From assembly GCA_965178125.1 (NCBI GenBank), contig OZ237761.1:62001-126000 (forward strand): a DNA stretch of 64,000 nucleotides, in the 5' to 3' direction. The stretch's first letter is position 1; every line of letters starts with the position of its first letter. Positions 10,601 through 64,000 of the stretch are shown piece by piece. A program made the position numbers and the translations under genes. This DNA comes from Bilabrum cf. latius (taxonomy: Eukaryota). Under the pieces are notes generated by a model. It was not told the origin of the DNA and made no database searches. It saw only the letters and a list, made by a program, of their open reading frames with translations.

Positions 10601-10902
10601 TGGCTGCTTCAAGTCTCGCAGCAACTGGTGGGTCCGATTGTGCAGGCGCTGCATCGGGGCCAGAGAAGCGAGTGCCTAAGGTGGCGGTTCCGGGACTGAG
10701 CCCAGAGCTGCTGGCAGTGCTGGACCCTGTTGATATACACATGATGGAGAGACGGGTGATACTGCAGTCAGAGCTGCAAGCATGGCACTTCGATTTCCGC
10801 AGGAGGCTGCAGATGCCGGGGAGCAGGCTGGGTGAGGAGCTGACGAGGTTGATCCTGAGTGCCTCGAGGGGGGAACTGAGGCTGGCTGGCAGACTGGGCT
10901 GA
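7602..10902 (+). CDS. Zn(II)2Cys6 transcription factor-like protein, paralog B (about 1099 aa); 10 TAG and one apparent +1 homopolymer frameshift
   Basis: ATG at 7602; ACLACKRAKRSC*DARPCPRCMRLGIPC with TAG (7725) inside the zinc cluster. Colinear similarity to paralog A throughout. The T run at 8750-8757 has one extra base. Ends TGA after GRLG, as in paralog A. Confidence 0.8.
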
Positions 10903-26929: not shown

Positions 26930-29878
26930 AGCGCTTGGATGTGGCTACAGCACTACGTCCCAATCCTGCGGTGGCTCCCATACTACTAGCCAGGGCTTCA
27001 AGTAGGCAGAGACGTCGTGGCAGGTCTCACCGTAGGCGTGATGGCCGTCCCTTAGGCCCTTTCCTACGCGGGCGTGGCCGGCCTGTCCCCCCAGTTTGGC
27101 CTGTACAATGCCTTTGTGGGCCTGCTGCCCTACTTTGCGTTCGGCACCTCGCCGCAGCTCATCTCGGGCCCGACCGCCGTGATGAGCATCATGACCCGCT
27201 CCTAGGTGCCCGACACGTACACCCCCGAGACGCTGGACTACGAGAAGATCTGCTTCATCCTTGCCCTGTTCGCTGGCATCATCCAGATCCTGCTGGGCGT
27301 GCTGCGCATGGGGCAGCTGATCAACCTCATCGGAGCCCCCATCATCGTGGGATTCACCACTGCCAGCGCATTCCTAATCGCAGCGACTCAGTTCTCCAAT
27401 TTCCTGGGCGTGCCCAAGTGCCAGCACTTCATCGAGAAACCCAACCCCAACCCGAGCGTCAACGGCACCATGGCAGCAGGTGGGCCCGAGATCAAGGTCA
27501 AGGTGAAGTGCAATTTCATCGAGGAGGTCTCATGGGTGGCTTCCAAGGGCCTCACCAAGCACTCGGAGATCAAGGGGTACGTCGTGCTGGCCTCGGCTAT
27601 CTGCGTGTCGGTGCTGCTCTTCTTCAAGTACTTCCTCAAGCCTAGGCTGCCGCAGCATCTCAAGCCGCTAGGCAACTTGGGCCCCCTGCTGCTGGTGGTG
27701 GTGACCATCCCCATCTGGTACGTGCACGGAGAGGCCCTGGAGAAGGTCGGGCTCAAGATGGCCGGCAAGATACCCGACCACCTGCCGAACCACGTCAACC
27801 CATTCGAGGGCATGCACGCGCACGAGGTGACCCAGCTCATCGGACACGCGGTGGTCATCGCGGCCGTGGGCTACATGGAGTCCATGACCATCGCGACCAC
27901 CGTGGCACGCAAGTACGGCGGGTACAAGATCGACCCCTCGCAGGAGATGACCGCGCTGGGAGTCTGCAACATCGTGTGCAGCCAGTTCCAGGGATACCCG
28001 GTGACGGGCTCGTTCTCTCGGACCGCAGTGAACGCCGATTCCGGGGCCTCCAGCGGATTTGCTTCGGTGATCTGCGCGGTGGTGGTGGGGGTTGCCATCC
28101 TGACGTTGACGTCTCTCCTGCAGTACCTTCCCAAGGTGGTGCTTGCCAGCATCATCATGGTGTCTGTGATCAACCTGATCGAGTTCGGGGAGGCGGCCAT
28201 CTTCTACCGCACCACGTGGCCGGATTTCATCGTGTTCCTGGTCGTGTTCGTGCTGGTCCTGACCATCGGGGTGGAGGACGGCCTCATCATCGGCATTCTG
28301 GTGCAGTGGGTGCTCTCCTTGACCTCGACTCACTGGGCTGCCTCTCCCGTTGCCGTCCTAGGGCAGGTCAAGGACAATGCCATCCTGCCGCCGGGAGGGG
28401 CAGGTGTCCCTACGGAGGAAGAGGAGGAGCAGGCCATGGCTGAGGTGGGTGGCGGTGCGGGCGGTGGCAAGGAGGACGGGTCTGGAAGCAGCGTCTTGTC
28501 GGGTGGCGTGTCCACCCCTGGAGCAGTCAAGCACGCCTCGTCCATCGTGCACAGCGCCTCCGTGCGGCTGTCCTCCAGGCGGAGGCTAGCGGGCGAGAGC
28601 GGGCCCATGGCGGAGGGTCTAGACCCCGAGGTGGGGCCCGTGGACCCGCATCAGGACGCAGCCGTGCTCGAGCCCTTGTACCCTGGGAGACACCTGGTGG
28701 ATCTCGCGGACGCCCGGTTTGCCCACCTGATGAGGGCGGGGGCGGCCGGGGCCGTGGGTGGGCTGGACGGCGCCTCCCGCGGGACCGTAGTGGTGGTGGA
28801 GGTGCAGTCTCCGATCATTTTCGCCAACGCCGAGAAGCTGCGGCAGACGCTGGACGAGTGCATCTCGGTGTTTCAGCCGAGGGTCGTTGTTCTCTCGTGC
28901 ATCGGGGTGACCGCCGTGGACTCGACTGGGACCGGCGCGCTGAGGTCCGCTGTGCTGGACGCGAGGGCGAGGAAGGTCCTTGTGTTCCTCACGGGGATGG
29001 CGCCGGCCCTCGCCCGCACCCTGACCTCGGGGCTGACAGCGCTGGACGAAGGCCACGGGGCGCCGCCCGTGCCGCTGGATGACGAGATAGAGAAGCAGAT
29101 GGAGGAGGCCATGGTGGGCGCCGGCGACAGCGGCCCCGGCAGTGACCAGGGCAAGAGCTTGGGGATCCGCTAGCAGCTATCCGTTGAGCTGAGGCAGAGC
29201 CCGGTGGGGAGTGGGCCCCAGTACGGTGTGACGAGCAGCATCAACAGCCCTTCCTCCGGAGCGGGGGGCATGACGGGCGGCGGCATGGTTGGGTCGTCGA
29301 TGGAGGACGCGCAGGAGGGGGTGAGGCGCGCGTGCAGGCGGGTGCTGGGGGCGTGGCGGCGGTGCTCGGAGAGCGGCGTCCCTGTGGGCGGCGGGCTGCT
29401 GATGTTCTGGAGGGCGCGGGTGGCGGTGAGGCACGGGCTGCGGCTGGCGGCTGCACTGGACCTGTTGTCCGAGGCGGAGGAGGCCGCCGCCAGAGTGGGT
29501 GGTGCTGGCGGCGGCAATGGCAAGAAGGGCAAGGGCACTAGTTAGGACGAGCAGGCTCAGAAGAAAAAGGACCAGGAGCGCGCGGCACTGGGGCTGGGCG
29601 AGGGTGGCATGGGCGTGCCGCTGTCCCCCGTCGTGCTCGCGGCCCGGAAGCAAGCCGCAGCCGACCGTCTCAAGGCGGCGCAGGAGGCGCTCGCCGTGGG
29701 GCAGCACGACACTCCCTCGGATGGGTCCACGCTCGTGTCACTCGTGTACGCTCGCAGGGCGCCGGACTTGCGCAAGTGGGTGGGTGTGGATCCCGAGGTG
29801 CTGGACGGGGATGATACGCACCACGACGTGCATCTCAAGATCGCGGCCAGGACCAAGTCCACTGGCACAGGGACCTGA
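26930..29878 (+). CDS. SulP/SLC26 sulfate-anion transporter with STAS domain (5' exon not resolved); 5 TAG
   Basis: Motifs PILRWLPYY*, DVVAGLTVGVMAVP*ALSYAGVAGL, GPTAVMSI, GSFSRTAVN and STAS VDSTG. TAGs at 26987, 27053, 27203, 29171, 29543. Ends TGA. Confidence 0.88.
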
Positions 29879-30039
29879 TGAGAGAGCCGCAGGGCCAGCG
29901 TGCGAGTGTGCTCCTCAGCACGAGCAGTTGTTATTTTGGTCTATCTTTTTGGCCAGACTATGCGCCAACGATGGGTCACTTGTGCAGTCCACGAGATATG
30001 TCCGATACAATGGTTCCAGTAAAGCCTGTGTTCCACTCA

Positions 30040-30509
30040 TTATGTGCTCGGGGCCGTGGGTGCCTTGTCGGCCTCGGCTGTCCCAGCCCCTGGCACCATC
30101 ATCGCAATGTTGTTTCCGTTCAGCAAGATCTCATCAAGTTCCACCTTTTCTCTTCCATCAGGCGTAGACACACTGCGAGCGATTTGTGGGAGAGACTCCA
30201 AGACTAGGTGTACACATAATGGCGTTCTAGGTGAGCGGCGGGATACCCATAGCATTCCTCACTACTCGGTGACGTTTTCCAATACCATGTTGACGTAGTC
30301 GTCAAAACCTTTCAATGTACCAACCACCTCCTTGTCTCCTTTCATCAGGACCCAAATCTGGGAGCCTACGCACTTGTCCATGAGCTCTGCGACATGTGGG
30401 AAGGCAACCATATGACTAAGAAGCAATTATTTCGCCGAATCAGGTGGTGATCACTTAATCTAAGATGAATTATCACACCTAGAGGAAGAAGACGAGCTAT
30501 CTTGGACAT
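30040..30509 (-). CDS. LSM5: U6 snRNA-associated Sm-like protein LSm5; exons 30479-30509, 30263-30386, 30040-30172
   Basis: Spliced translation [52 protein letters not shown]...[17 protein letters not shown]. Two GT-AG introns. Ends TAA. Confidence 0.93.
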
Positions 30510-30634
30510 TGCAAGCTAGTATTTGCCATTGCATAAAACTATCGAGTTGAAAGTAATGTGGGGTTTCGTGTGCAGAATCTGGTTTTTGGGATGTCGGGCA
30601 AGTGCAACCATTTCAATATAGAAACTTTACGATC

Positions 30635-31998
30635 ATGGCTGCCGCTGGAGAGTCTAAGGTTGATACTGGTGCTACCGGTGAAGCATCCAGCGGCTCAGGA
30701 TCGGTTGGAGGATTCCGCGTAAAGGCGGGATTGGCCCAGATGCTCAAGGGTTAGCAGTATCTTTGCCCCGAGACGCATCTCGGAGTAGAGACAGGCATCC
30801 ACGGGTGATTGAAGAGTCTCCATCAGCCAATCGCTCGGATTACATACTTTAATTCCTTTGAATCCTTTGTGAACCCCGCAGGTGGAGTGATTATGGGTGA
30901 GCAAATAAGAGCAGTGATGACATCATTGCAGACGTGGCGTTTGTACGCACGCTTGTTTGGAGGCCATGGCTGCGTAGCCGTGATACCTTCGTATTCGAGG
31001 GGCTTTAACGCGAGTCCTCCATATGGCGAAAAACGGTTTACGTCGCAGTTGTGCTCGCTAAAAGAGGAACTGGCGTACCGGCACGGCTCAACTTTTTGCG
31101 CCCTCTTTACAGATTTGTTTGCTGCCGCAATGTATCACGTTCAGCTGGATTCTGACCTAACTAAGCTTAATAAACACCTCCCGCAGACGTGACGACCCCC
31201 GAAGAGGCTGTGATCGCCGAGGAGGCCGGCGCCGTCGCCGTCATGGCGCTGGAGCGAGTGCCCTCTGACATCCGTCACGAGGGCGGCGTGGCCCGTATGA
31301 GCGACCCCGAGATGATCCTCGGGATCAAGAAGGCGGTGAGCATCCCCGTGATGGCCAAGGCCCGGATCGGGCACTTCGTGGAGGCGCAGATCCTTGAGGC
31401 CCTCGAAGTGGACTACATCGACGAGAGCGAGGTCCTGACCATGGCTGACGAGGAGAACCACATCGACAAGAACAACTTCAAGATCCCCTTCGTGTGCGGG
31501 TGCAGGAACCTTGGGGAGGCACTCAGGAGGCTGAGCGAGGGCGCTGCGATGCTCAGGACCAAGGGGGAGGCCGGGACTGGCAACATCGTCGAGGCGGTGC
31601 GGCACGCTCGGGCGGTCAACGGTGAGATCCGTAAGATCCGTGCCATGGACGAGGCGGAGTTGTTCTCCACCGCCAAGCACCTTGGCTGCAGCATCGAGCT
31701 CCTTAAGGAAGTGCGGAGGCTCGGCCGGCTGCCGGTCGTGAACTTTGCCGCCGGCGGTGTGGCCACCCCGGCTGACGCTGCCCTGATGATGCAGCTGGGC
31801 ATGGACGGCGTGTTTGTTGGCAGCGGTATCTTCAAGAGCGGGGATCCCAGGGCGCGCGGAAAGGCCATCGTGGAGGCGGTGACCCACTACCAGGACGCGA
31901 AGAAGTTGGCCGAGCTGTCCACGGGCATCGGCAAGCCAATGAGCGGGGATGGGGACATCAAGAAGAGTATGGTGGCGTTCCGGGAGAGGGGCCACTGA
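30635..31998 (+). CDS. PDX1: Pyridoxal 5'-phosphate synthase subunit PDX1/SNZ; exons 30635-30749, 30882-30896, 31187-31998
   Basis: [17 protein letters not shown] after splicing, [28 protein letters not shown] and [12 protein letters not shown]. Ends TGA. Confidence 0.95.
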
Positions 31999-32347
31999 GC
32001 TACGAGATGGGTGTGGTGATCAGCACGTTCTGTCGAAGGATGCTGACTGGCCCACGGCGAGTTGCCGGGTGGGACGCCGTCCTTCACACCGCTTGACTTC
32101 TTTCGGCCCCTGGCGCTGGTGCCATGGACCGATTGGACCAGATGTTGCAAAGGTTATTAATGACCGGTGATTGCATGGCTGCACAGGCTTGCATACGTCT
32201 TCTTTCTACATGGATGGGGCCAAGACGAATCCGAGGTGTGATAAATTATGTGACGAGTGCGCACTTGCTCATTCGGCAGCATCGTATTGTGCCACGTTCT
32301 GTGTTATCTACGCATTTCAGCCTTCCAGTTGCACATTCTGAGATATC

Positions 32348-33208
32348 ATGGCAGCATCTGCACCGGCTATGAGCAGGCGAATCATGAAAGTAAGCAGTAG
32401 CCGTACCTATGTGGGGGGCTATAGCGGTGCACACCAAGAACAGCTCGAAACTGCTACGATATTCCCTATTCGTGTCGCAGGAGACAGTTAAGCTGCAGAA
32501 GGATCCTGTGCCAGGGATTTCAGTTGCTGTGAGGTTGCTGATCCCATTGCACGCTTTGAATGTTGATCTTGGAAGCCAACATACTGCAGCCTCCACGCAT
32601 TTCGACAGCTTGCCCGCAGCCGTTCAAGGATAATCTTCGATACTTTACTGTGTCTATGGAAGGACCTAGTGACTCCCCGTATGAAGGTGGAGTGTTCAAG
32701 CTTGAGATGTAAGAAGCGGCGCGCTCTGCCTGCCCGAATTTGAAAGAGTTCACGTCATGTGTGGCATTTTTCTCCGATGCCTGCACCCGTTCCCATACAT
32801 TTCTTTCGAAGGTTTTTGCCCGGGGACTACCCGCTAAGTGCGCCAAAGGTTCGATTTCTGACGAAGATTTGGCACGTCAACATTGACGGGTGAGTTGCAC
32901 TTGAGCGACACTGACCGCTTGAAGACCACATCAACCGTGCGGATGCGACTGCGATACGAGTACTCGGTTTGTACGGGACTGCACCTCACCTCATCCGCAG
33001 GCTCGGTCGAATTTGTTTGGATTTGCTCAAGGACCGCTGGTCCCCAGCTCTCCAGATGAGGACGCTGCTCCTCTCAATCCAGTCCCTGCTCGCGGATGAA
33101 AACAACGACGACCCTTTGAACGAAGAAGCGGCGGCTCAGTATCGCAAGGACAAGTCGGCGTACCTGGCAAAGGCCAAGGAGTGGACCGCGAAGTTCGCAT
33201 CGTCCTGA
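32348..33208 (+). CDS. UBC13: Ubiquitin-conjugating enzyme E2, UBC13/UBE2N-like; 5 exons
   Basis: Spliced [97 protein letters not shown]. Ends TGA. Confidence 0.85.
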
Positions 33209-33364
33209 AGGTGCTTGGAATATAACGTGCAAAAACACGTATCATACCTTGAATAATCGGGATGTTTTTCGGTACAGCTTCAATCATTGAATGAAGCCCA
33301 CGCCTCGACCGGAGCGCCGCCCAAGTCCAGTCTCTGAGAAACCACGATAAGCCTGCAAGCCGTG

Positions 33365-35740
33365 TCATCTGCGGCCCTCGCCCTCGCCCTGCTCCTGCTT
33401 GGCCTCCTCGTCCAGCAGGGGAGAGGACTCGTAGTCCCACTCCTCCGCCTCGCTGATGTACGCCGTCTTGGGCATCGCAAACCCGTTGAAAGCCGTGCTG
33501 GCCGCCTTGGTGTAGGCTCCCGCAGAGTCGAACAGGAGAGCATCCCCGGTGGACAGCCCAGAGGGCAGAAGGATGTCAGAGGCGATGCAGTCGAACCCGT
33601 CGCACGTCGGTCCCCACAGAGACACGTGCTGCCGTTCTCCCCACTCGTCACTCGGGCAGTACCACGCCGGCACGCCGTTCGCTTCCATCCCTCCCTCCGA
33701 GCTGCCATCGGTCGAGGCACCACCACCCCCAGCCCGCTCCGAGGCCCACGTCGCGAGTGCCGCCGCCAGGGCGCTCTTGGTCGCGTCCGCGGCCTCCTCG
33801 GACCTCTGCAGCACCCGCGCCCGCCCCTCCTCCCCGCTCGACTCGGAGTCGGAATCAGAATCCCCCTCGCCCGGCCGCAGCACGCTGGCTGCCGCCGCCA
33901 GTGCCGCGCTCCCCGCCGCCGTGGCCTCCGATGCCAAGTCCTCGGGGAGGGGCAGCACGGGGGCAGCGGCCGCCGCCGCTCCCTGGAATGCCTCCAGGTC
34001 GCGGTCGCTGATCCCCTGCCCGGCCATGTCTTCCGTGGACACCGCAGGCATGAGGAACTTGGCCGAGGCGTCCATCTCGCTGCGGATGGGAGCTCGCTCG
34101 TCACCATCGCTATCCCCGTCATCATGACCCCCCTGCTGCTGCATGTACTCCACCTGGTCCTCCACAGCCTCAGCCACCTCAGTGCCGGGCAGCGCCGCGT
34201 CGGGCCCGTCGAACTCCCAGTGGGCCCCCTTGAGGCCCAGGGCATGGGCGGGGACGGCCGCAGGGGCCACGCACGCGTGGTCGTACAGCACGCTGTTGAG
34301 AGAGCCGTAGAGCCCGTCGGTGACGTACACCCTCGCGCGAGGGTCCCTCCCCGTCACCCCCGCCTCTCTGTACATGAGTGCATCCACGTCCCTCCTCCCC
34401 GCCACAGTGAGCATGAGCGTGTGGGAGGCCTCCACGAAGAACCGGCCGGGCTCCGCGAGCACCATCGGGGGCATGGCGTCGGAACCCCTGTTGTTCCCTG
34501 AGCCGCCGCTGTTCGCTCGCTTCTTGCCCCTGGGCCTGTCCCTGCCCAGCATGTCCGCCCACCTGCCGCCGTTGGCCGCCTGGTACTCAGGAAAGTACCG
34601 CCTGAGGTAGTGCCTAAGAGCCCGCGCGATCTCGCGGAAGGTGTCTCCGCCGGCGTACGGGCCCATCCGCGGGTCACCCTGCAGCAAGGACATGGGCAAG
34701 CCGTCCTCGTCCTCGTCGCCGTGCTGTCCCTGATCGGACCCCCCCAGCAGCCCGGAAGTCATCTCCGACAGCGCAGCCTCCCTAGCGGCCTGCGAGACGG
34801 CAGACGCCACCGAGTGACCGAGGATGCCCCCGCCCCCGTCCATGGACCCGGGCGACCCAACCCCCACCGGGCCCACCAATCCACCGGTGGACCCGGCCCC
34901 GAGCCCGTGCTCCCCCGCCGCCGCCGCCGCTCCCACGTACACGCCCGGGTCCTCCCTGCTCAGCTCGCGCTCCCTGTCTCCCGCTCCCGTGATGGTCCCG
35001 TGCAGAGACCCCGGGAATCCACCCCCGATGTCAAGCACCTCCATGGGCCGGCCCATGGAGGCCGCCGCATCAAAGGCGAGGCGCGCCCTGCGCAGGGCAT
35101 CGCCGTAGGTGGCTGCGTCATAGCACCCGCTCCCCACGTGGAACGAGATGCCCACGACATCCAGGCCGAGCGCGGCTGCGGTGCGCAGGAGACCAGGGAC
35201 CGCGGCCTCGTCCGCCCCGAATTTCTCGCTGAATCGGCACACCGACTTGCGGTCGTCGGTGGCGATGCGCAGCAGGAGCTTCATGCCCGGCGCGATGCGG
35301 GCCAATTTCTCCAATTCGCTTGCGTTGTCAAACACGGTGAGGCGCACGCCCATCCGGCGCGCCGACCTGACGTGGGCGACGTGCTTGACGGGGTTGGCGT
35401 ACACGATCCGGTCGGCGGCGCGCGTGCCGTCCTGGGACACCTCAGGGGCCGTTTCGAGCACCTGACGCATCTCGGCGGCGCTGGCGCAGTCGAAAGAGAT
35501 TCCTTCTTGGGCGAGGACCCTGATCACCTCCGGGTCATTGTTGCACTTGACGGCGTAAAACGGCTCTATGCTGGGCATGAGCTCACGCCAGCGGCTGACC
35601 TGGTGCTTCACGATTCGAAGGTCGCACAGGAACAGAGGCGAGCCGTCCGCAGTTGCCCGTGCAGCTTGCAGCAGAGCGCGGGAAGCCGTCTAGGAGCGCG
35701 CGAGGCGCACGCGAGGAAGGGTCTTGCCAACACCGAGCAT
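33365..35740 (-). CDS. ODC1: Ornithine decarboxylase (PLP-dependent, fold type III) with long low-complexity insertions; 1 TAG
   Basis: Motifs PFYAVKCN, FDCAS, KFGA, SFHVGSG, DIGGGFP, EPGRFF, WGPTCDGFD and GAYT. ATG at 35740 is in frame through TAG at 35690. Ends TGA. Confidence 0.88.
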
Positions 35741-36391
35741 CGTATCTATTCGCGGGTGGCAACTAGCCGGTTGAGGCAGTCGACGTTATATGCGGCACAA
35801 CCTGCACCAGTTGATATAATAGATGAAGAATGAGAAACAACTTCCAGACATATTCGCCTTGGGGGGCGCAGCTGGATGGCGGTAATAGGTGTTTTGATCG
35901 ACTGATGCGACGTGGCAGCTGCTTCTCGAGCAGCGAACAACGAAGAAAGCGCGCAGCATCGGCTCCTGACAGCACTCTCACCAGCTGCTAGGGTATAACC
36001 TAGTGATTTGTTAGGCTAGTATTTGTTAGCCTGGATCACTGCAATCAGAAATGGGCAACAGAAGCAACGCAAGACTCGTTCCCTGCATCGTTCCTTCCGT
36101 GCGACGCGTCATCTGCGAACTTGCATCTCACACAACGAAGCCGGCCCAAAACACCCTTCGGGTGGGGACCATGCACGGGTGCACCGTGGTAGGTGGCGTT
36201 CTTAGCTCGTAAAGACGAGCCGTGTTGCACGCTTTGCTGTGAAAAGCCGGTTTTTGGGGCTGACTGGCTTGCAACGAATCTTCGTTCGTGAGAGGATAGA
36301 AGGTTCGTGGAGGTTCGTAAATTTGAAAGAATGAAGCGCTTCCTAGCGGACAAACACCGCCATATACGTCACGTTACGCCTCAAAAGCAGA

Positions 36392-46564
<10,173 letters not shown>

Positions 46565-46831
46565 CTTGTCGGTCCTATGGCTTGCGCAACAGACCAGGGT
46601 CTCAGTTATTGTGCGAACAACCCGACAGATCGACTAAAAACGCCAAGGGGGGCGGTTGAGGTTGTGATCTCGGCGACGGTCTGGAACAGGTCATTCGTTC
46701 CCGGTTCGCCAGAGTTCTTTCGGTGGTCGGTCGTCTCAGGCGACTCGTCTGCCCGACCAGGCCCGGTGTCTGGCAATGTAACGGCGCATAGGCAGCCCAA
46801 GACGGAGCGCGCAGCCTGTTCACGTTTCTAT

Positions 46832-48430
46832 TTACAATTTCTATGCATCCAGGACCGTGCTCCCCGCGCTCCCCGCCTGCGCCCTGGCGAGGTACTCCTC
46901 CGTGCCCATCTCCGCGAGCCTAGACCGGGTCCTGTCGAAGGCGAACACCTCGTCCGGCTGCGCACCTTCGTGCGATGCACCCGCATCGGGGAGCATCTCT
47001 TCCAGCGGGGCCTCGGCCTCCACCACCAGCGCCCTGCACTCGTCGTACAGGGTATCCACAAGGGTGATGAAGCGCCGCAGCTCGTTCCGTTTGCTCGCTT
47101 GCAATACCGGAACTCCCTCAACAAATACGGCTCCGAATGCCCCCGCGATCGCGCGGTAATCGCCAGCGCCCATCGGACCCCCAGCGCGCACGCCGCTGCC
47201 GTCCCCGCACAGGTCGTCAAACCGGAACCGGGCCACAGCAAACGGAGCGGGTGCACTCGTCACAGCCCGGGGACATGCGACCGGCCGGCCCTGCGCTTCC
47301 AGCTCAACGGATACCTCTGTGCAACCCCTCGTGGCTCTCCTCCAGTAGTCATCTATGCCGGCGGCTGTCACCTGGCTTCCATCTCCTCCTTTTGCCACCC
47401 CCACCAGCTTCCCCGAGGAATCCGCCGGTGCCCCCCCGCCGGCACCCTCAGTACCCGCTGCCCCATGTCCTTGCTGCTCCCGCACCTCACTCGTCACGAT
47501 CCAGGTGTGCCCGGCCTGTTCCCCAGCCAACCGGTAGTCCACCCCCGCGTCCAGGCAGCACTCCACGAGGGCCCCCTGCAGCAGCACGATGCAGGGAACA
47601 AACAGCTCCCGTGAAAGACCGTTCTTGTACAAGTCCACCGGTGGACGGTTTGAGGTCGTCACGAGGACGCAGCCGGCACGCAGCAAAGCCGGAACTAGCC
47701 TGCCCAGCAGCATGGCGTCTCCGATGTCCGTCACCATGAACTCGTCCAGACAGAGCACGTCGGTTTCCGAGGCGATCCGGGCCGCAATCCGAGGGAGCGG
47801 GTCCCCGGCCGGAGCCCCTCCTCCTCCTCCTCCTCCTGATGAGGCGCGCATCGCCGACTGCCTCTCGGCGTGCATCTCGGCGTGCAGGTCGAGCATGAAG
47901 CGGTGGAAGTGCGCCCTCCTCCCGCTTGTTCCCTTGGGCAGGGCCTCCAGGAATGCCTCCATCAGCATGGTTTTGCCCGTGCCAACGCCCCCCCAGATGT
48001 AGAGGCCCTTGGGCACGCCCGCAGGGAGCGAGGCCTCACCGCCCTGCTCCACCATGGCTGCCGCGTCTGTGGCGAACGAACCGCTCGTGCTTCCCGCTCG
48101 CGGCAGAATGCGGCTCGGTGGCTCAGACGTGTCAATTCCGATCATGTCGGCGACACGTCCGAACAGTCCGCCGAGTATGCCTCCATCCTTGCTGGATTCC
48201 AATTGAGCTGGTCTTGCGCTTTCTTCTGCCGCTGCCCTGGCCCGCTCCAACGCAGCAGACCGTCCCCCGCTGCTGGATGTCCATCTTGCAACTTCGCCAA
48301 CGAGTCTATCAAGCTCAGCGGCGACTTTTTGCTGCTCGGTATCCGCAACTAGGCCTCCATCGGACACTCGAGACGCCAGTATCGCATTTACAGACGTTTC
48401 GGGCGCAACCGCCGACGAGAACCTCCGCAT
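46832..48430 (-). CDS. AFG1: AFG1/LACE1/ZapE-family ATPase, probably mitochondrial; 1 TAG near the end
   Basis: Motifs KGLYIWGGVGTGKTMLM, HFHRFM, LCLDEF, TSNRPP and RRFITLVDTLYD. Transit-like MRRFSS. Reads DA*KL then TAA at 46832. Confidence 0.9.
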
Positions 48431-48740
48431 GTCATGTGGAAACTAGTGGTGCATGCTGAACATGCGTGATTCAGACTAGGCTAGCGTGACCGCCGCCTGG
48501 AGCAAACTTGGCAGGTGTCGCTGGCGACTTCGAGCAGTCACATGCAAGCTTATAGATCGTTTGCAGACACTCTTAGTTGCGCATATGGATCTACAATAAG
48601 ATTTGCATCGTGTGATGGCCCTCATACGTCGAGAAAAGTACAAGAATTCGGTTTTTCGTGGTTCGTACTCGTCACCGCCGGCCGCCACCACAGGCGGCCA
48701 CGAGTCGCAAAGAAAGCCCCACATCTACCCTCGGACAAGC

Positions 48741-50425
48741 ATGCTTCGTTATCGCGCCTTGCGTTCCATGCAAAACATCTCTCGTGTGCCGTGCGGGCAC
48801 AAGGTAGCCTTTGCTCGGGCCTTCACGGCTACGGCGCAAGTGCTTGCCAAGCGCAAGAAGAAGAAGGCCACGTTCGACGATGGTAAGGTACATGTCCAAC
48901 TATGTAATATTTAATGCTGAACTTTTCCAAAGTATAGTGCTACTATGACTTGCAGTCCAATGTACCCGCAGACAAGGCTGCTGCGCTGGATATGGCGGTC
49001 CAGCAAATCGAGTCGGCGTTCGGGAAGGGCTCAATCATGAAGCTGGGGGAACGCGTGCACTCCGACGTGCCGGTAGTCTCTACAGGCTCCCTTACCCTAG
49101 ATGTGGCTCTTGGTATTGGAGGCCTTCCTAGAGGACGTGTGGTCGAGATCTACGGGCCCGAAAGCTCAGGCAAGACTACAATGGCGCTTCACGTGGTTGC
49201 ACAGGCTTAGAAGTAGGTGAGTTATTATCGAAGTCCACGACGACCCAGCTTGGATTGCGCCACCCCGTCAAAGCTTGCAGTCCTGCGTGCTGGCGCGCTG
49301 GCCTCACCACAGAGGCGCGGAACCCGCACCACGCTGGTCATCGCGTGATGTCGGCTGCACTCGCGTGACGAACCCCACGCCTTCCAGCTTTGAACATCTC
49401 ACTCGCAGGGTCTTGATTGCACCTTTATTGACGTCGAGCACGCCATCGATCCGGGTTACGCCGAGCTGATCGGCGTGGACACGTCCTCGCTGCTCCTCTC
49501 GCAGCCAGACACCGGGGAACAAGCCCTCGAGATCGCCGACACGCTCGTCAGGAGCGGTGCCATGGGAGTGGTGGTCGTTGATAGCGTGGCTGCCCTTGTT
49601 CCCCGGGCGGAGCTGGAGGGCGAGATGGGCGACGCGCACATGGCGCTTCAGGCCCGACTCATGTCACAGGCCCTCCGCAAGCTGACGTCTTCCCTGTCTC
49701 GGAGCGACACGCTGCTCATCTTCATCAACCAGATCAGGTCCAAGGTGGGCGTCCTCTTCGGCTCGAACGAGGTCACCACGGGCGGCAATGCGCTCAAGTT
49801 CTACTCGTCCGTACGACTGGACATCCGGCGCACCGGGCAGCTCAAGCAAGGGGACAAGCTGGTGGGCAACTCGACCCGGGTGCGCGTGGTGAAGAACAAG
49901 ATGGCCCCGCCCTTCCGCACGGCCGAGTTTGACCTCATGTTCGGGAAGGGTGTCAGCTGGGAGGGCGAGCTAGTCGACCTGGGCGTGCAGTGCGGGGCGG
50001 TCAAGAAGGCCGGTGCCTGGCTCAGCGTAGAGGCGAGCATCGCGCCGCCGGAGGCATGGATCCAGGACGAGGCGGAGCCGGAAGAGGATGTGGAGGACGA
50101 TGGGGATGACTAGGCCGCCGGGGAAGAAGGGGAGGATGCCGAAGCCGAGGGGGCCGAGGGCGTTGACCCAAAGTAGGCCTCTGTACCTGCACCGGCCCCC
50201 GCCGCGGGGTCCTACAAACCCCCCGAGGGCTCGGTGATGATTGGCCAGGGGAGGGAGAAGGCCAAGGCGTGGGTGCTTGCCCACCCAGCAGTAAGCCAGC
50301 ACATCGCGGCCAGGGTCAAGGAGTTTATGGGGGTCGCAGGAGGGGAAGGGGGGGAGATGGAGGAGCAGGGCGAGGAGGAGGAGCAGGGCGAGGAGGAGGG
50401 TGGGGATCCGACCTCTAGAGTGTGA
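48741..50425 (+). CDS. recA: Bacterial-type RecA with organellar (probably mitochondrial) presequence; exons 48741-48887, 48956-49216, 49409-50425; 4 TAG
   Basis: Motifs [70 protein letters not shown] and IGQGREKA. Arg/Ala-rich presequence. Ends TGA. Confidence 0.93.
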
Positions 50426-50935
50426 TAGCTCTAGCTCGCGGCGATGATGACACGATGAGTGGAGGATGGCAAGCCCACAGAGGTGGGCGAGGGCCCGAGT
50501 GGAGATATTGAATTCGGGGCGCATGCACAGATACTAGGACCTAATGTTTTATTATTGCAGCTCTACTTTCTAATTCTAGACGTGGCAAGTGCGACGGTAA
50601 CGCTCTATGGCAGTTCACGATTGGTGTGCACCCATTAAGCACGGCCAGTTTCTTTAAGACCAACCCACGCTCACCCAAAGTATGGCGGCAGCAGCTGGCG
50701 AACCAAAATTAAGACGTGCCGTTCCTGGCTTTGGTGACATCAGCCATGAGAAAGCGGGCTCTGTGAGTAGGGCCAACCGAGAACCGTGCGATCCGGATCT
50801 GGGGCACTGACACTATGACTACCTGGGATTCATCTTGCATGGGCGTGGGGTCATTGCCGTGCACTTCAGCAAAATCTATATTGACTCCACATAAAATTTG
50901 AACCGGCTGAAACCCCCGTCCTGCGCAAACGACCC

Positions 50936-53900
50936 TCAAGGCTGCGTGATAGCCTCGATTTTCTCCGCCGCTCGCTCCCTCCCGCCTCCCACCGCGTCTC
51001 CCTCGGTCAGCCCAAACAGCGCCGCCGTCGCCGCATCCGCTGCGCGATCCTGCTGCACCGCGGCCTTGCGGGCCGCCTCGTACCACTTTGACCACTCCGC
51101 CTCGGCCGCCGCGCGCTCCGCCGAGTCGCGGCCCAGCAGCCTCTCGGCAGCCTTGGCCGCTGTCTCGTCCTCCTCGGCCCCGACCATCCACGGAGCCTGG
51201 TCCGAGAGGGCCACCGCAGCTGCTTGTTCCGCATCCGATTGCGCGGCGCCACTTTCACCACCTCCGTCCCTCTGCGCAGCCTGCTGCAGGGCCGATCTGG
51301 CCAGCGCTCCAGCACCTAGCGATCGAGCGATGTCCACGGGTACGGCCCGCTCCATCTCCTCTAGCTTCGCGAGGCAGTAGATGGACCTGCACCTGAGCTT
51401 CAAGGAGGCCAGAGCCTCGAGAGACGCCTGGTCCTTGGCGCGACCCAGAGCGAACACCTTCAGTCCTTCCGCGGTCGTTCCGGGGTACGATTCCGAGAGC
51501 GTGAATCCCTTCTGCGTGATCGGCTCGCGGATCGCGAACTCGCGCAGTGCCATGCGCACCCGCTCCCCCGCGCGCAGCATCCCGCTGAGGTCCTCGCTGG
51601 TGGACACGAACGGCAACCCCTGCGTCGCAGAGGCCTGTCCCGGGAGCAGGAGACCCGCCCCGCCGCCGGTGATGACCCGATAGGCCACCACGCCATCCTC
51701 GGACCTGCCCCCGTAGGCCTCCGAGAGGGTAAGCCCCTTGGCCGTGAACGGTGTGACGACTGCGTATTCCCGCATGGGTCGGCCTTCCTCCGTGTAGGTG
51801 ACCCCCTGACTCAGTGTCAGCGCTGTCAGCTGGGACAGCGGCAGGGAGTCCACCCCGGGGCCCCACTTGCCCCTGCCCTTGGAGGCACGGACCAGCGCCT
51901 GCCTCGCGTCGCGGACCCTGTCCCGAAGATCCGAGCCGGAGGCACCGCCGTGCGATGTATCACCATCTCCGTCACCGGTTGCATCGGCAGCCTTTGCCGC
52001 CTGCTCCACCTCGGGCGTCCCGCTCACCAGCTGCACCACATCCCCCACGCCGATGGATCCCCTTAGATCCACACCGTCGTCAGAGACGGCCGCCCACGGG
52101 CTGCCCTCTCGCACGCTCAGGCCCACGGGCAGCCTCACCCTCCTGACGATCCGGGCCCCGCCCAGCCCAGTGGCAGAGGCATCGGGCCAGGGAACAGTGA
52201 GCCGGACGAGGTCCCTGGACGGCGGCTCCGCGACGATGAGCATCTGCTGACGGCCCACCCTGAGCGCATCCCCGGTGGACAGCAGGCCGGTGAGGTCACT
52301 GGTCGTGCTCAGGAAAGGACTGCCCCGGATGGCGTGGAACGCGCCGGGCAGCAGCGCGAGCAGGATTTCACGCTCGGTGCCGCCCTGCCCGTCCTTCTCG
52401 GGCGCAGGCGGCTGGGGATTCAGGTTGAGGAAGAGCGGCTGCGCGCTGCCGTCCCTGCCTTGGAACTGGCTGTCCAGCAGGATGTGGGAGGGACCGTACG
52501 GCAGGCCCCCGTCCTGGCCCCTTTGGGCCACCCTCAGACGCCGGTAGTCACCCACGCGGAGCACCGTCCCGGGCTGCACGAAGTCTCTCAAGTCGCACGA
52601 CGTAGACACGCGGGCGCTACCCTGTTTCACGGAACCCACGCACGGTAACATCCTGTACCCCGTGCCGTGCAGCGGCTGCTTTTCCGCCGAGCCTGCGGCG
52701 TGCGGCTGCACCGTCTGGAAGCCCCGCGCGGACACGCCCACGCCGAGTGAGGACAGGCCTCCCAGCTCGTCCGCGTGCCTGTCCTCCGGGCCGTTGTTCC
52801 CCAGGCCAGTCATGGCACCGCCGCCCACGTGCATGGGTAGGAACGGCCCAGCTACAACCTCATCTCCCGGGACCAGCTTTCCCCTTAGATCCGTGTTCGA
52901 GGCCACAACTCTGCTGCCTTGTTGCAGGTCAACAAGCACGCCGGCGGTGGAGACTGCCTGCAAGCCGCGGCTGCGCACTTCGCACTTGCTGCAGCCACGT
53001 TTGCCTGGCTAGTCTCCCTTCTCCCCGCCACCCGAACCGTCCTCGTCCTCGTCCTACTCCGACTCTTCTTCCAGCGGCCCGGCGAGCTGGAACCCCGTCC
53101 CGCCGATGACGTCACCCTCTTGCCCGTCCTTGGGTACCAGTGCCACCTGACCAAGGTAGAACAGCAGGGGCCCACCTTCGCCACTGCTGCTACTTGCGCC
53201 CAGCCGCAGCAGCTCGCCCGGCCGCACTTGCCCCCTAGGATCCCTTTCACAGATCGCTTTGGACTCGCCGGGCCCCACAGAGCACACGAGTGCATCGAGC
53301 CCGCCCACCGCAGCCGCCCCATCCTCTTCGCCGCTGGGCAATACCCCGAGAAGGCGCTCCCCCGTGTGGAAGAACCACGGCACGCCAGCGCGGCCCTGCG
53401 CAGATGGCACCATGGAGTCCTGCCCGCTGCTGCCATCATCGGAGCCTCGCACCAGCAGTCCGATGGCGGTGAGTGGCACATGAGCCGGTGCCCTCAGCAC
53501 GATGTAGTTGCCATCGTCCTTGCCCTAGTACGGCCCGATGTGATCGATCACTAGTCCGAATGCGCCGCCGATCATCACAATATCGCCAACGCCCAGGACT
53601 GCGCCGACGTCTGCCGTCGACTTGCACTCCACCCGCACACTGACTTCGACGTCCCCCGATCCACCAACATGTTCTCCGGACTGGTCTTTTCTATTCGATG
53701 CGGCCATCTTGCTGCGCAGGACACCCACGATGCGCACGTCGCCAGGCAGCACGCGGTACGGCAGTTTCCTGCCCTGCGCCCTCTCGTTGTCCTCCCCGAC
53801 CCATGCCTTCCGATCCAAGTCAAACCCCGCCGCGTGCATCGCGACGGCCTTGCGAGACCCGTCTATTCCCCCCCCTAGCATTGTTCCTTCCATTGCTACC

Positions 53901-55321
53901 GCGTGCGGGATGGACTGCTCAATCTGCAGCACATCCCCGGTCTGGATGAGCCCCCTGATGTCTTTCGTGGAGCCCACGCTGAACACGCCCCGCTTGACGA
54001 TCAGGAAGCCGGGCAGCAACGCCCCGCCCAGCCCCTTCCCATCCCCAAACATGGACGCTGCAGCGTTCCGCACCGCCGCCACCACGTCATCCACGCGGAC
54101 GCCCACGGGTCCAGGACTCGGTAGCGCTTCCCTCTTCTGGCTCTATCCCATGGCCATGGACGGGTCAACGAGGAAAACAGGCAGCCGCTGGGCCCCTCCC
54201 CTGTGGACGTCCTCGTTGAGCAAGAAGCCCTCACTCGTCACAGGGGATGCCACAAGGTACACCCGGGGGTGCACCGTGGGCCCGTTCCATATGCCATCGC
54301 TGCCCTTGGTGTCTGCATCCGTGCCTTCCACGCCCTTGCTAGAGGCGCCCCCGCCCAGCCCCACCCAAGCCAGCAGCCCCCCGCCGCCGCCCTTGCCCTT
54401 GCCTGTGCCTCGAGACCCGTGCAGACCTTGTTCCTCCATCTCGAGCACGTCTCCAAACAGAACGATCGCGTCTCCCTGCCTCAGGCTCTTGGTCGGATCC
54501 CCCACAGTCACGCGGACCGCGCTGGCACCATGCTGGACGTCGGCCAGGAAGGGCAGCGGTTTCAGGTTTGTAGCCCACAGGCGGTGCAGCAGCTTGTCTT
54601 GCAGCGGAAACGGGGCCAACAAGGTAAATCCAGCCGTAATCGGCGCGGATTTCAGCACAAGCGGCACTGCCTCGGCGATTCGAATCACGCTCTTGCTCTT
54701 GAGCAGCGTGGGCAGCTGCGAGCTGCTGGCACCCAGCCCGCTGAGGTCACCAGAAGACGAGATCCAGGGGGATTGCCTGGTCGCATTAATATGCCCTGGC
54801 ATAGGTATTTCACGGTACAGCGCCTGAAGATTGCTGCTGACGCTTAGCTGCGAGCTTAGCAACCCGCACGCTTTCGCCAACGCTGACAGCTCGCCGTCAT
54901 TCCCTCGAAGCTGTTTTCCACTTATGCTTGCCCCTACCGACGCATCTGACTGCAAGACCTTAGTTACTGCGTCTTTGGTGCATGCTGATTCGCTTTCGGA
55001 GCTTGGAACCTCGCGAAAGCGCTATGTCTGCAACTACGAATTCCGTTCACTAGACCCCGACCCTGCATCCGAAGGGGTGATTCCTCCCGCTTGATTGTGG
55101 TCAGATAGGTCTTTCCTATGCCTGTTTTCCATACGCCCGCTACTTATCCCCGAATCACCCACGAGAAGCACAGCTTCGGCAGAACTTGGAGGAGCCAGTG
55201 TGCGCGCAGTGGCACTTGGCCTAGAAGTCGATGCATCCATGATCATTTGTTGATTTTCTCGCCTCCATCCAGCAGTACTACCAATCCAAAATATAAATGC
55301 TACAGAATACAACGTAGACAT
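50936..55321 (-). CDS. Large secreted protein (1461 aa) with about 9 dispersed copies of a beta-rich module; 6 TAG
   Basis: Signal-like MSTLYSVAFIFWIGSTAG. Five track ORFs share one frame, joined by TAG (55034, 55022, 54143, 53525, 53054, 53009). Repeated LP..V..G...V.T..DL.G....GD.L.VG motif. Ends TGA. Confidence 0.75.
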
Positions 55322-56448
55322 GGCTTTAATCGATTGTGTGGGACACTGCTTTTTTCTGGCAACCTATACCAGTTCTTTGCACCTTACATTCCGAGTCGCT
55401 GAGCATCCGGAGTGAATATTATTATTTTTGCTCCCGATGCTCACCAAGGGTTGTGCCAAAAGATCTGACCCCATCATATGAATTATCTTTCTATATTGGT
55501 CAGTCGCTTCGCAGCTCGTCAGAGTTCACGTATCCTCCAGGCACCCCGTACTGCTGCCCAGCCTGGCAGGCTAGTCCAACCCTGCTCTAGCGCTGGCTAC
55601 CGCCGTGGCAAGGCTGTTGTTTCCAGCTGCCCCCACAGTCAAACTATCAAAGTCCTTCTGAGTGGCAACCACCAGGGGGGAATGGATTCTCGGGGCGGAG
55701 CTTAGGTGGCTCCGGCTACTGGCCCATTGAAGCCGAAGCGTGCAGTTTGGTTTGGTAGTTTCTGGGCTTGCGGTCCAGACAGATGCGAATCCTTTAGAGC
55801 GTCCACTTTTAAGAAATTTTTGCAACCTATTAGTGCATATGGCATATCCCCCCCCCCCCCCTACATGAATATATCGTCACACGCTGCAAGGAGCACTCCT
55901 GCACTGACCCACCAGCAGAGGCCTGCCCACCACTGGCAGGTACAGCCCTGCGGAGCACCCACCGGATCCATTGACGGTGCAGGCAGCATCAATCGCGATC
56001 TGCTCCTAGCCGTTCGCTTTTCCCAGATATTGAAGCGGTCCTGGGGGATATTGGTGATACAGGGTCTGCTGCTGTGGTTGGGTGCGAGGGCTTGTCCCCC
56101 AACAACCTGCCTATTGATCTCTGCTCTTGTTGATTCAGGGCAAGATTCGCAATACCCAGGGACACTCTTCGCTTGCCGCGGGCCACCCGCCCCGGATACC
56201 CTACCGTCCGTAATAACGTTGATTGAGATACCCTACCGCCCCGAAAACCCTAGGTCCGACCCAGAATCTGCACTTTACCCCAAGATGGACCCCCGGATTG
56301 GATTGGCCCCCATTCCGGGGGTGGGGGGGTTGAGTTTCACTTGTCAAGTTGGAGTAGTACCCGGAATTTTCGGGGTACGGTACCTCGCAGGTGTGCTCCG
56401 GCATTTGAAAACACCACGTCACACGCTAGCTCGCCATACTTACAGCCA

Positions 56449-57204
56449 ATGCCGCGCTCAACTGGGCCATTCTGGATGCTGATGCTTGCTCTGGTAGCAA
56501 ATATGGCGCTCGCTTAGACCGATGACGGGTTCGCTGATGAAGACGCCGGTGATGACTCGGAAGACCAGTCTCCATTCACAGCAGTCGTCGGAGCCCTATT
56601 TGCGGCTGCTGGTTTGGTACCACCTCTGTATTTGTACTTTTATGACCGTGTACCGGAGTTGCTCCGTCTCCGGGACGAAGGTGAGACAAAGACGGCAAGC
56701 GTGCTGAAAGACCGCTACAGCACCTCAACAAACGGGCAGGGCGGCAGCTCTACGACGTACTACCTCACGGTACAAGTTGACGTAACCTCGGGAAAGGAGG
56801 GTTGTGTCAGAGTGGAGAAAGAGCTGGTCGTGTCTGCAAAGGCGTTCAAGCGCGGTAGGGATTCTCGCCAGCTTGATGTTGTTGTCCTTCCTAGCGAGCC
56901 CCTGCACATGATGGAGGAACAGGAGTGCCGCAATATCGGAAATAATTTCGGGTGCAACTGCAAAGCTGTGTCGTTCTCGCTTTTCGGTGGGGTGTTTATC
57001 GTGGGCGGCATCGGCATGTCGATGTTGCTGCTTTCCAACTCTGGCTGGGAGCTTGCACCCACAATTGCCACGATCGTTGCACTGCTGATCGGGTTTGCAG
57101 GAATGCCATTCATGGTTAAGAGATGCATCAGATAGTGCGCTGATTCCATGTTCGAAGGTGGCTCGGTCCGGCCAGTCAGCCAGGAGCAGGCAGCGGCCGT
57201 GTAA
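56449..57204 (+). CDS. Small membrane protein (signal peptide, TM, beta-rich domain, 2 TM; DUF3592-like layout); 2 TAG
   Basis: Starts MPRSTGPFWMLMLALVANMALA*TDDG. In frame with ORF 56614-57135. Reads through TAG 57133 to TAA at 57202-57204. Confidence 0.65.
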
Positions 57205-57629
57205 AGCGGAGTCATTGAGTTTGCACGGGCTGCGCAGCAACAAGTATTGGATTTTTTGTTTCGCTATGAGTTCCGATGGGTTTGTGCTTGAGCCTGAACG
57301 TTCCAATATCGGGTAGTCGTGATAGGCTACCATGGCCTTCATCACCAATGAACCAATGCCACTGGCAACACAGGTAGCCGTGAATGTATGTAAACTTTTG
57401 GTGATTTCGTCCACGAATGCTCATCCAATGTAATATAGCTCACCAAAGCCAGCAAACACTGATGCTGAATGACACAACAGTGCCTCAACAGTGCAGTGAA
57501 CTTGCCATGTTCTGTTGTGATGACATGTATTGTTTTGCAACACATGATGGTGTTACGACACGCATGTATGCCAAAGCATCTGATTCAATTATTCACTATC
57601 TACATTTTGATCGACCAGTCGCTTTGCAG

Positions 57630-62700: not shown

Positions 62701-64000
62701 ATTCGTGGAGGTGCTTTATATGGTCGACAACCATTGCCTTCAGTAGCTGGCATCACCGAATGGTGCATCTGAGGGCGAATCACCTACCAGGGAGCGGAGC
62801 GACACAATGTGCAGGGATGATTGGAAGCAGCTCATTTCGCAGCGCAAGTGGGAAGAATGGCTCCCAAGCATCAATACATCACACTTCTCCTGCTTGGAGT
62901 CAACAGCTTGGAGTATGCACTCTGCTGACGAAGCAAAGGAATCGGTTCGGTTGTTGTGGGCTCTGGTGAATCGCAAGTTCAGCGTCGCTCGTGTCTTCTG
63001 GAGGTACTGCTCCGAGCCTCTGCGGATGGCTCTGTACGCGGCACAGGTTCTGCGGAAGCTAGCAGGCACGGATGATGCAGCGCGCACCATGCTGCTGAGT
63101 GAAGCGGACTGGTACGAACGGTTTGGTATATAGGTGCTCGAGCACGGTGGTACTAGCAGGGACTTCCGTGGGTGGGACAAAAAGGATCGGCAGAACGTTT
63201 CACTGTGGCTTAGGTCCACAGCACCGAGGTCTCAAGTGATATGCGATGCCATTCTTCAGTAGTACTCGGTGTCAAAACACATCGAGCATGGTAGGTGCTG
63301 TTGGTACATGTGTTGGTCTTGCTGTCGGGATATGCCGTCTTGCTGTCAGAGTTGTTTCTGCTGTCGGGATGGCCTGACTCAGGTGACCCGCCTCCACCGC
63401 GGCTCAAACATCATCCGATTGGCTCAACGCTCTGAGTCAATGGAGTTTATGGGCCATCCGGTGGTGCAGAGGCAGCTGCGATGTCTTTGGCGACACAACA
63501 CTTGGGAGAAGCCATCGGGGGGACTGACCACAGTATGGGGATGCTGCCGAGTATGGGACTGCTGTGCAAGCTAGGACTATTCTGCTAGGAACAACTGGTT
63601 TAATGCACCACGCACGCGGTGCTGGTTGCATTCGATTTCTCGGGTTGCCCTCACTATCCTTCATGCTTGGGTGGTTCTTCAACACTACGATGAGCCGCGA
63701 GCTCGGCTATTTCTTCCCATTCTCTTCTTCGTATGGAAGGGCCTGCAGCTTTTGGAGGACAGTCTAGTTGCTGCTAGGCTGGGCATCCACGACATCTCCG
63801 TGTGGGATGCGCTTGGTACTCTTGATTACGCGGCAATGTTTGTAAGCCTAGGGCTGTTCACGGCTGCTGGCATTGGTGACAATGGTATCTTGCACGACTA
63901 TTCGATGGATGTGCTTAGCGTCTCGTTCATTGTGGCGTGCATCCGTCTCCTGGACATCCTCGCAGTCATAGAGTTCTTTGGCCCGATGGTTATCACCATC
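59708..64000 (+). CDS. Second TRPM-like channel paralog (3' end beyond the window; a further upstream exon is possible); at least 6 TAG
   Basis: Motifs GTIEF, SITGGADL, WVITGGSDAGIM, LNPDHTHFIF, GGPETMKTVSSA, WALVNRKFSVARVFW and TM RLLDILAVIEFFGPMVITI. TAGs at 59750, 60131, 62744, 63131, 63260, 63572. Confidence 0.85.
60794..61740 (+). repeat. 15-bp coding minisatellite (about 63 units) encoding Q(E/A)A(D/G/A)(R/G/E) pentapeptides
   Basis: Units such as gcaagaggcagacag and gcaagcggcaggcgg, in frame within the TRPM-like paralog. Confidence 0.95.

Follow-up and report, generated by a model that had tools for sequence, protein, structure and literature searches.

Evidence for UAG as a glutamine codon, with UAA and UGA as stops, in the nuclear genes of a stramenopile

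To take up the question of how stop codons are used in contig OZ237761.1, we analysed a 64-kb window of it (positions 62,001 to 126,000 of the forward strand; all positions below are counted from the first letter of this window). An earlier note, made from the sequence alone, had claimed that UAA is still a stop in this DNA and has been split from UAG, which stands inside the genes. This claim has held up, on the C-termini of homologues of a membrane protein whose gene ends in TAA, on a TAA that ends the RecA gene of a close relative, and on in-frame TAGs that are found unaltered in RNA-type contigs. We conclude, with a probability of about 0.85, that the nuclear code of the source organism corresponds to NCBI translation table 15, in which UAG means glutamine and UAA and UGA are the sole terminators, UGA being the more common one through the GC-richness of the genome.

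The stops of all complete genes are either TGA or TAA, and the count of the earlier note was correct: 17 out of 20 complete genes end in TGA and three in TAA, namely LSM5 (30040), the AFG1-like ATPase (46832) and the membrane protein (57204). The 19 coding sequences (CDS) defined by their open reading frames (ORF) comprise 14,737 codons with 66 TAG, 125 CAA and 443 CAG but neither TAA nor TGA, and a larger set of 21 coding segments, which includes two partial genes, comprises 17,088 codons with 76 TAG, 214 CAA, 498 CAG and again no TAA and no TGA. These sets have two small flaws, as the ankyrin segment begins with about 15 intronic codons and some ORF starts are possibly over-extended. The complete lack of in-frame TGA in 17,088 codons, together with its use at gene ends, shows that UGA serves for termination and not as a sense codon. 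Likewise, the statement that TAA never occurs internally in frame is true for the whole window, including the TRPM-like giant frame, for which 12 TAG, 25 CAA, 96 CAG and no TAA were found in 3390 codons bounded by a SLOG domain (residues 38-289) and a channel domain (3002-3233). When the same genes are read in their five other frames, the rates per 1000 codons amount to 2.47 for TAA, 6.38 for TAG and 14.37 for TGA, and in frame TAG is present at 4.48 per 1000 codons with TAA and TGA at zero; from the off-frame rate about 42 TAA would be expected in frame.

The absence of TAA is of importance for a code similar to table 6, in which UAA and UAG would both be glutamine codons and UGA the sole stop, TAA would be rare through GC content, and the terminal TAAs would be sense codons in front of the real TGA. 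Codons ending in A are however not avoided in twofold families, as CAA makes up 22-30% of CAA plus CAG (CAR) and GAA and AAA are found at about 24%. If the ratio of TAA to TAG followed that of CAA to CAG, 18.6 TAA would be expected in the 14,737-codon set and 32.7 in the 17,088-codon set, and none was observed. This test is partly circular, since a TAA was taken as an ORF border just like a TGA. Within homology-bounded stretches, covered by Pfam or homologue matches only, we counted 17 TAG, 40 CAA, 190 CAG and no TAA in 6,596 codons, where 3.6 TAA are expected (P(0) = 0.028). The circularity is limited, because the TAAs found 5' of the ORF starts of the ODC, AFG1, ankyrin and Zn2Cys6-A genes are preceded by sequence with non-coding scores (-0.10 to -0.01 compared to a coding mean of 0.23), because by the same score no TAA with coding-like sequence on both flanks was found in the sense frame of the TGA-to-TGA frames, and because the three terminal TAAs, if they were sense codons, would all fall into the last 30 codons of their genes with a chance of only about 4e-5. 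The score, which is based on codon usage, discriminates weakly (coding mean 0.23, standard deviation 0.16) and was used for support only.

Conserved positions support UAG as the putative glutamine codon of the source organism. In the SulP sulfate permease, codon 39 is a TAG that faces the Q of a 'VPQ' motif in all 13 homologues and in all three displayed solved SLC26/SULTR structures, with the remaining two N-terminal TAGs of this gene being located in variable columns. The first TAG of RecA ('AQA-TAG-K') faces the Q in 'AAAQR' of the E. coli RecA. Most of the other TAGs are found at variable positions and are uninformative about the amino acid, and the paralogue pairs within the window (TRPM1/2, Zn2Cys6 A/B and GH39a/b) turned out to be too divergent to be used for testing the meaning of TAG.

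Further glutamine positions came from a relative. A metagenome scan with AFG1 resulted in 73 loci, 72 of which are distant and mostly represent bacterial-type ZapE with 27-52% local identity; for one of them, L073, the match has 65% identity but covers 37 residues only. The single close relative, L046, has a length of 2762 nt and a GC content of 56% and shows the gene order of the window, with the divergent AFG1-RecA pair and both RecA introns being kept and a RecA core about 90% identical to that of the window. Its 640 in-frame codons contain eight TAG, no TAA and no TGA. In the window RecA exon 2 closes with TAG-AAG-TAG, which reads CAG-AAA-CAA in L046, whereas the TAG of L046 in 'ARLMS-TAG-ALRK' of RecA is a CAR (Gln) codon in the window and a Q in the E. 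coli RecA. A fourth exchange between TAG and CAR is found in AFG1 ('QQKV' in the window, 'Q-TAG-KV' in L046), giving four such glutamine positions in all, and three more TAGs of L046 are located at variable positions, opposite D, F and R. The acidic tail of the L046 RecA ends in TAA, within three codons of the column aligned to the TGA of the window gene, and the 15 codons that remain on the contig after this TAA show neither a TGA nor acidic character. If UAA were glutamine, the L046 RecA would have to continue for 15 residues or more that do not resemble the acidic tail. As L046 combines in-frame TAG with a RecA gene ending in TAA, the code appears to be common to at least two members of the clade, the organism of the window and L046.

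We then have to consider that there is no change of the code at all and the TAGs are artefacts resulting from unrecognised introns, pseudogenes, RNA editing or assembly errors, which we regard as the least probable of all explanations. At least one in-frame TAG (23709) is indeed located inside a predicted intron and several ORF starts are uncertain. The 76 TAGs are nevertheless distributed over 18 of the 21 coding segments, they occur at invariant glutamine columns, and L046 shows the same usage. Moreover, RNA-type contigs from three runs (X6 and X7 from one study, X8 from a second one) are available for comparison, whose RNA nature follows from spliced RecA contigs in X6 and X7, joined across both RecA introns at GT..AG borders, and from gene-shaped coverage, which is the same in X8 as in X6 and X7. 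AFG1, RecA, g50936, the membrane protein and Cupin8 together have 19 in-frame TAGs, 17 of which were found unaltered in colinear RNA-type contigs, and both TAGs at the end of RecA exon 2 stand in the spliced contigs. X5, an independent and DNA-like run with a colinear contig of 10 kb, shows the same sequence as the window. Between 46400 and 60300 no letter differs over 13.9 kb except for one base missing in X5 at 55848, which is intergenic. Since these TAGs are unchanged in RNA-type contigs, they are not explained by editing, hidden introns or assembly errors. The RNA-type contigs of all three runs from both studies stop about 60 nt within the g50936 frame (50997-51001), with the DNA-like run continuing; we considered polyadenylation inside this ORF, but the site is a G-rich low-complexity stretch and likely a contig break, and no inference was drawn.

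Having UAG as a probable sense codon, the role of UAA depends on the three genes ending in TAA. A search with the membrane protein, translated through its TAA by table 6, found four relatives among 1.84 billion representatives. Three of these (P0242-P0244) are full-length, and all three stop 1-2 residues from the TAA with none of them entering the extension; the coding score is 0.14 before and -0.13 after the TAA. From these comparisons the predicted end of the protein at this TAA is unambiguous. The AFG1 gene (Pfam AFG1_ATPase, E = 1e-74) was less useful, as the C-termini of its homologues vary, ending 10-20 residues past the conserved 'EEYL', and do not discriminate between TAA and TGA. For LSM5 the caution already expressed in the earlier note was justified, because its TAA is directly followed by TGA and is ambiguous by itself. 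The 3' ends of the RNA do not discriminate between TAA and TGA either, as the membrane protein contigs pass the downstream TGA. The AFG1 RNA-type contig ends at 46819, 13 nt past the TAA and 1 nt past the TGA; this hints at a very short 3' untranslated region, contig ends being no proof of RNA ends.

A table 6-like code could account for the TGA found one codon (LSM5) and four codons (AFG1) after the TAA and for RNA contigs of the membrane protein and AFG1 that reach past the downstream TGA, and in most known variant codes UAA and UAG do shift jointly, according to the available part of PMC5304391. With the expected internal TAAs missing, all three TAAs at ORF ends and the homologues of the membrane protein ending at its TAA, we nonetheless consider such a code very improbable, and prefer UAA as a stop.

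A single TAA in frame between two coding stretches was found in the ankyrin gene (23832-23834). We take it as intronic by prediction, because it lies in a stretch with the splice motifs of the RNA-verified RecA introns and because excision of this stretch (23700-23891) rebuilds a regular ankyrin repeat. The predicted borders are GTGAGA right after '..GADCNAKTTN' and CACCGCAG right before 'MGDTALFVAV..'. Each exon of the gene apparently carries about one ankyrin repeat, the predicted intron has the same length as RecA intron 2 (192 nt), and acceptor sites in the source organism read (C/T)CGCAG.

The earlier note had also pointed to a strong preference for TGA. As a count (17 of 20) this is right, but a special explanation is not needed, as three TAA stops out of 20 fit the base composition: TAA makes up 0.15 of TAA plus TGA in the off-frames and 0.30 in the intergenic DNA (9.9 kb), and 3/20 differs from neither of them (binomial P(<=3) = 0.10 for 0.30). 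TGA is preferred because the genome has 60% GC and TAG is unavailable. A second TGA within five codons of the stop was seen in six of the 19 tabulated genes, from which we draw no claim.

The TAGs are not distributed evenly along the genes. In 17 complete CDS (window 3983-58890) they are biased towards the 5' end, with 27, 14, 9, 8 and 5 TAGs in the successive quintiles, and the ratio TAG/(TAG+CAA+CAG) drops from 0.205 to 0.047 along the genes (chi-square p = 4e-4). Compared to the positions of CAR the bias is strong (Mann-Whitney p = 4e-6) and persists when the first 100 codons of every ORF are dropped (p = 0.006) and when TRPM is left out in addition (p = 0.03). Such a bias, like the TAG located three codons ahead of the TAA in AFG1, would fit an incomplete or ambiguous reassignment, in which UAA and UGA are stops and the reading of UAG as glutamine competes with termination or depends on position, so that UAG may end some genes. 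We consider this unlikely. The gradient is in part a general codon bias, because CAA compared to CAG shows a weaker 5' bias in the same direction (p = 0.002) and the GC content of third codon positions (GC3) climbs from 0.645 to about 0.75 along the genes, and over-extended ORF starts may add further TAGs at the 5' side. Near the ends of the ORFs TAG is not in excess (two observed compared to 2.5 expected in the last 30 codons) and no gene requires TAG as a stop. In addition, conserved sequence continues past TAGs, as in the alignment of SulP with its Cafeteria homologue, which goes beyond the TAG at codon 869 into 'AALGLG.GG.GVPLSP.VL'.

According to the available part of PMC5304391, the reading of UAG with UAA staying a stop needs a tRNA with anticodon CUA, for which a mutated copy of tRNA-Gln(CUG) is the simplest source, and the N-domain of eRF1, the single eukaryotic release factor, must stop accepting G at the third position. 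In the source organism the UAG codons would accordingly be decoded by a CUA-anticodon tRNA-Gln unable to pair with UAA, and recognition of a third-position G by eRF1 would be lost or weakened with that of UAA and UGA being kept.

Some points speak against the code that we propose and have to be named. There is no tRNA gene and no eRF1 gene in the 64-kb window, and the decoding machinery is hence inferred; termination at TAA and insertion of glutamine at TAG are likewise deduced from sequence. A 5'-biased placement is not obviously expected of a fully neutral synonym of the glutamine codons. Two of the three TAA stops have a TGA within 1-4 codons and alone are no proof of termination at TAA, the prediction of the ankyrin intron around the TAA at 23832 is based on motifs and not on RNA, and the strictly non-circular count of TAA given above is small. 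Finally, the basis is limited to one 64-kb window and one relative of 2.8 kb.

The window has a GC content of 55-63% (about 60%) and is densely filled with eukaryotic genes on both strands, which mostly consist of a single exon, with short GT..AG introns in a few of them (Table 1). Its source is a stramenopile and probably a heterotrophic bigyran, as judged by the closest homologues of SulP and PDX1. By a wide margin, SulP is most similar to a protein of similar length from Cafeteria roenbergensis (515 bits, 55% over 480 residues), with the alignment spanning residues 2-900 and thus all five TAGs, and the PDX1 matches that bear organism names come from Mucochytrium, Hondaea, Heterosigma, Phaeomonas, Tribonema, Pythium, Achlya, Phytophthora and Florenciella, all of which we take to be stramenopiles. 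Cafeteria and Mucochytrium belong to the Bigyra, as confirmed by a taxonomy check. A PDX1 with 93% identity is present in public assemblies (P0245), and close relatives have therefore already been sequenced.

Table 1: Genes, introns and stop or TAG codons discussed in the text, with positions in the 64-kb window.
Feature	Position	Strand	Remarks
Partial gene	2-3190	-	runs off window start; 1063 codons, 4 TAG, 0 TAA, 0 TGA
Zn2Cys6-A	3980-7391	-	stop TGA at 3980
Zn2Cys6-B	7602-10902	+	stop TGA at 10902
SRCR gene			stop TGA 14615
DUF268 gene			stop TGA 14826
GH39a			stop TGA 18637
AAT/C45 gene			stop TGA 20320
GH39b			stop TGA 20616
Ankyrin gene	22938-25355	+	stop TGA 25355
Predicted ankyrin intron	23700-23891	+	192 nt, GTGAGA..CACCGCAG; contains TAA 23832
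GFA gene			stop TGA 25727
SulP sulfate permease	26939-29878	+	CDS; 5 TAGs; stop TGA 29878
SulP in-frame TAG, codon 39	27053-27055	+	Q of 'VPQ' motif
LSM5 exons	30411-30266, 30172-30040	-	93-nt GT..AG intron; LSM domain E = 1e-13 on exon 1
LSM5 TAA-TGA tandem stop	30037-30042	-	TAA 30040-30042, TGA 30037-30039
PDX1			stop TGA 31998
E2 gene			stop TGA 33208
ODC			stop TGA 33365
TRPM-like giant gene	36392-46564	-	3390 codons; stop TGA 36392
AFG1-like ATPase TAA stop	46832-46834	-	CDS about 48454-46832; TGA 4 codons later (46820-46822); TAG 3 codons upstream
RecA	48741-50425	+	stop TGA 50425
RecA intron 1	48883-48971	+	89 nt, GT..AG; TAAs at 48884 and 48905 in exon frame; spliced in X6/X7 contigs
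RecA exon 2 end, TAG AAG TAG	49208-49216	+	final three codons of the exon
RecA intron 2	49217-49408	+	192 nt, GTGAGT..CTCGCAG; spliced in X6/X7 contigs
g50936	50936-55477	-	1513 codons; stop TGA 50936
Membrane protein TAA stop	57202-57204	+	CDS 56449-57204, 251 codons; next in-frame TGA 57289-57291, 29 codons on
Cupin8			stop TGA 58893
Second TRPM-like gene	59729-63997	+	runs off window end; 1423 in-frame codons, 6 TAG, 0 TAA, 0 TGA; SLOG E = 2e-17

Pfam searches identified the AFG1-like ATPase, the SulP/STAS permease, an ornithine decarboxylase (ODC), a bacterial-type RecA, two GH39 proteins, a C45/AAT and a Cupin8/JmjC-trefoil protein, the TRPM-like channel of 3390 residues, an ankyrin and an SRCR protein, LSM5, PDX1, an E2 enzyme, a Zn2Cys6 factor, a DUF268 protein, a second TRPM-like gene and a GFA-family gene as well as additional exons of the GH39b and ankyrin genes. 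No Pfam family was found for the two long open frames g50936 (1513 codons) and 2-3190 (at least 1063 codons), which both look expressed, g50936 being covered by RNA-type contigs in three runs. RecA is a nuclear, intron-bearing gene of bacterial type, which has an exon for an N-terminal presequence and, ahead of the C-terminal domain, an insertion of acidic low-complexity sequence, and its product is presumably targeted to an organelle. The Zn2Cys6-A and -B genes are head-to-head paralogues, each of them in two frames with a break near the conserved 'MCRHFF' (about 6600 and about 8750), and the equal placement of this break suggests that both contain a short intron or a frameshift there. Long simple in-frame repeats occur in the TRPM-like genes, with a Gly-Ala dipeptide run in the first (45321-45523) and about 1 kb of tandem units rich in Q, A, G, E and D in the second (60700-61750).

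Table 15 is already known as a nuclear code from Iotanema spirale (Fornicata) and from the ciliates Protocruzia tuzeti, Hartmannula sinica and Trochilia petrani (PMC5304391, PMC11687900; these papers and PMC10553269 are cited here and below for the parts of their text available to us). In I. spirale, as here, UAG alone is reassigned to glutamine and UAA and UGA are used as stops only, and UAG ends no genes there and probably none here; the organism is however an unrelated anaerobic metamonad, its predominant stop is UAA, in contrast to TGA in 17 of 20 genes here, and its code was described from a transcriptome and ours from genomic DNA (PMC5304391). Its eRF1 carries T32G in the GTS motif (PMC5304391). 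For the three ciliates, table 15 was inferred, as here, from UAG at glutamine positions and C-termini at UAA or UGA, with 93.5-100% of the aligned C-termini located at UAA and UAG spread like synonymous glutamine codons (PMC11687900), whereas in the window TGA dominates and TAG is 5'-biased. UAA is the main stop in Iotanema, Hartmannula and Trochilia (PMC5304391, PMC11687900).

The table 6 codes of many ciliates, Hexamita, ulvophyte algae, Streblomastix and Amoeboaphelidium share UAG as glutamine and TGA as stop with the window, but there UAA is also glutamine, whereas here TAA is absent from 17,088 codons and ends three genes (PMC11687900). Codes in which UAG and UAA differ from each other, as they do here, have been described for the rhizarian exLh and ciliate metagenome-assembled genomes, with UAG as leucine, and for Scotinosphaera, with UAG as serine (PMC11687900, PMC5304391). 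In the oligohymenophorean PL0344 UAA means lysine and UAG glutamate, so that unlike here UAA is a sense codon too (PMC10553269). As far as described in these parts of the literature, UAG does not stand for glutamine in any of exLh, the ciliate genomes, Scotinosphaera and PL0344, which differs from the window. Context-dependent codes as in Condylostoma, Blastocrithidia and karyorelicts also have a stop codon that is read as an amino acid within genes, but there the same codon also ends genes (PMC5304391), whereas in the window TAG is needed as a stop by no gene and shows no enrichment towards the ends of ORFs. This leaves room for a weaker position-dependent effect of UAG in the source organism.

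No nuclear reassignment of a stop codon in a stramenopile was found in our full-text literature searches, with most subscription journals being outside their scope, and the table 15 code described here is apparently present in a new lineage. It is tempting to go further and to assume an independent and so far undescribed origin of UAG-only glutamine in a GC-rich bigyran clade of at least two members, with a UAG that is not yet neutral and a competition with termination causing the 5' accumulation of TAG, but we regard this combination as speculative and rather doubtful.

For the annotation of such genomes the choice of the code has direct consequences, as the standard code cuts most genes of the window at TAG and splits the TRPM-like frame into pieces of at most 913 codons, and table 6 would over-extend the three genes ending in TAA. 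In the sources available to us UAA and UAG nearly always change their meaning together and only few lineages split them, namely Iotanema, an uncultured rhizarian, Scotinosphaera, the uncultured oligohymenophorean ciliate, Protocruzia and some phyllopharyngean ciliates, with ciliate metagenome-assembled genomes among them. With a case in the stramenopiles, a further major group would have an independent origin of such a split, in a GC-rich genome with UGA as the main stop, and it would offer a natural test of how one eRF1 keeps UAA and UGA while dropping UAG.

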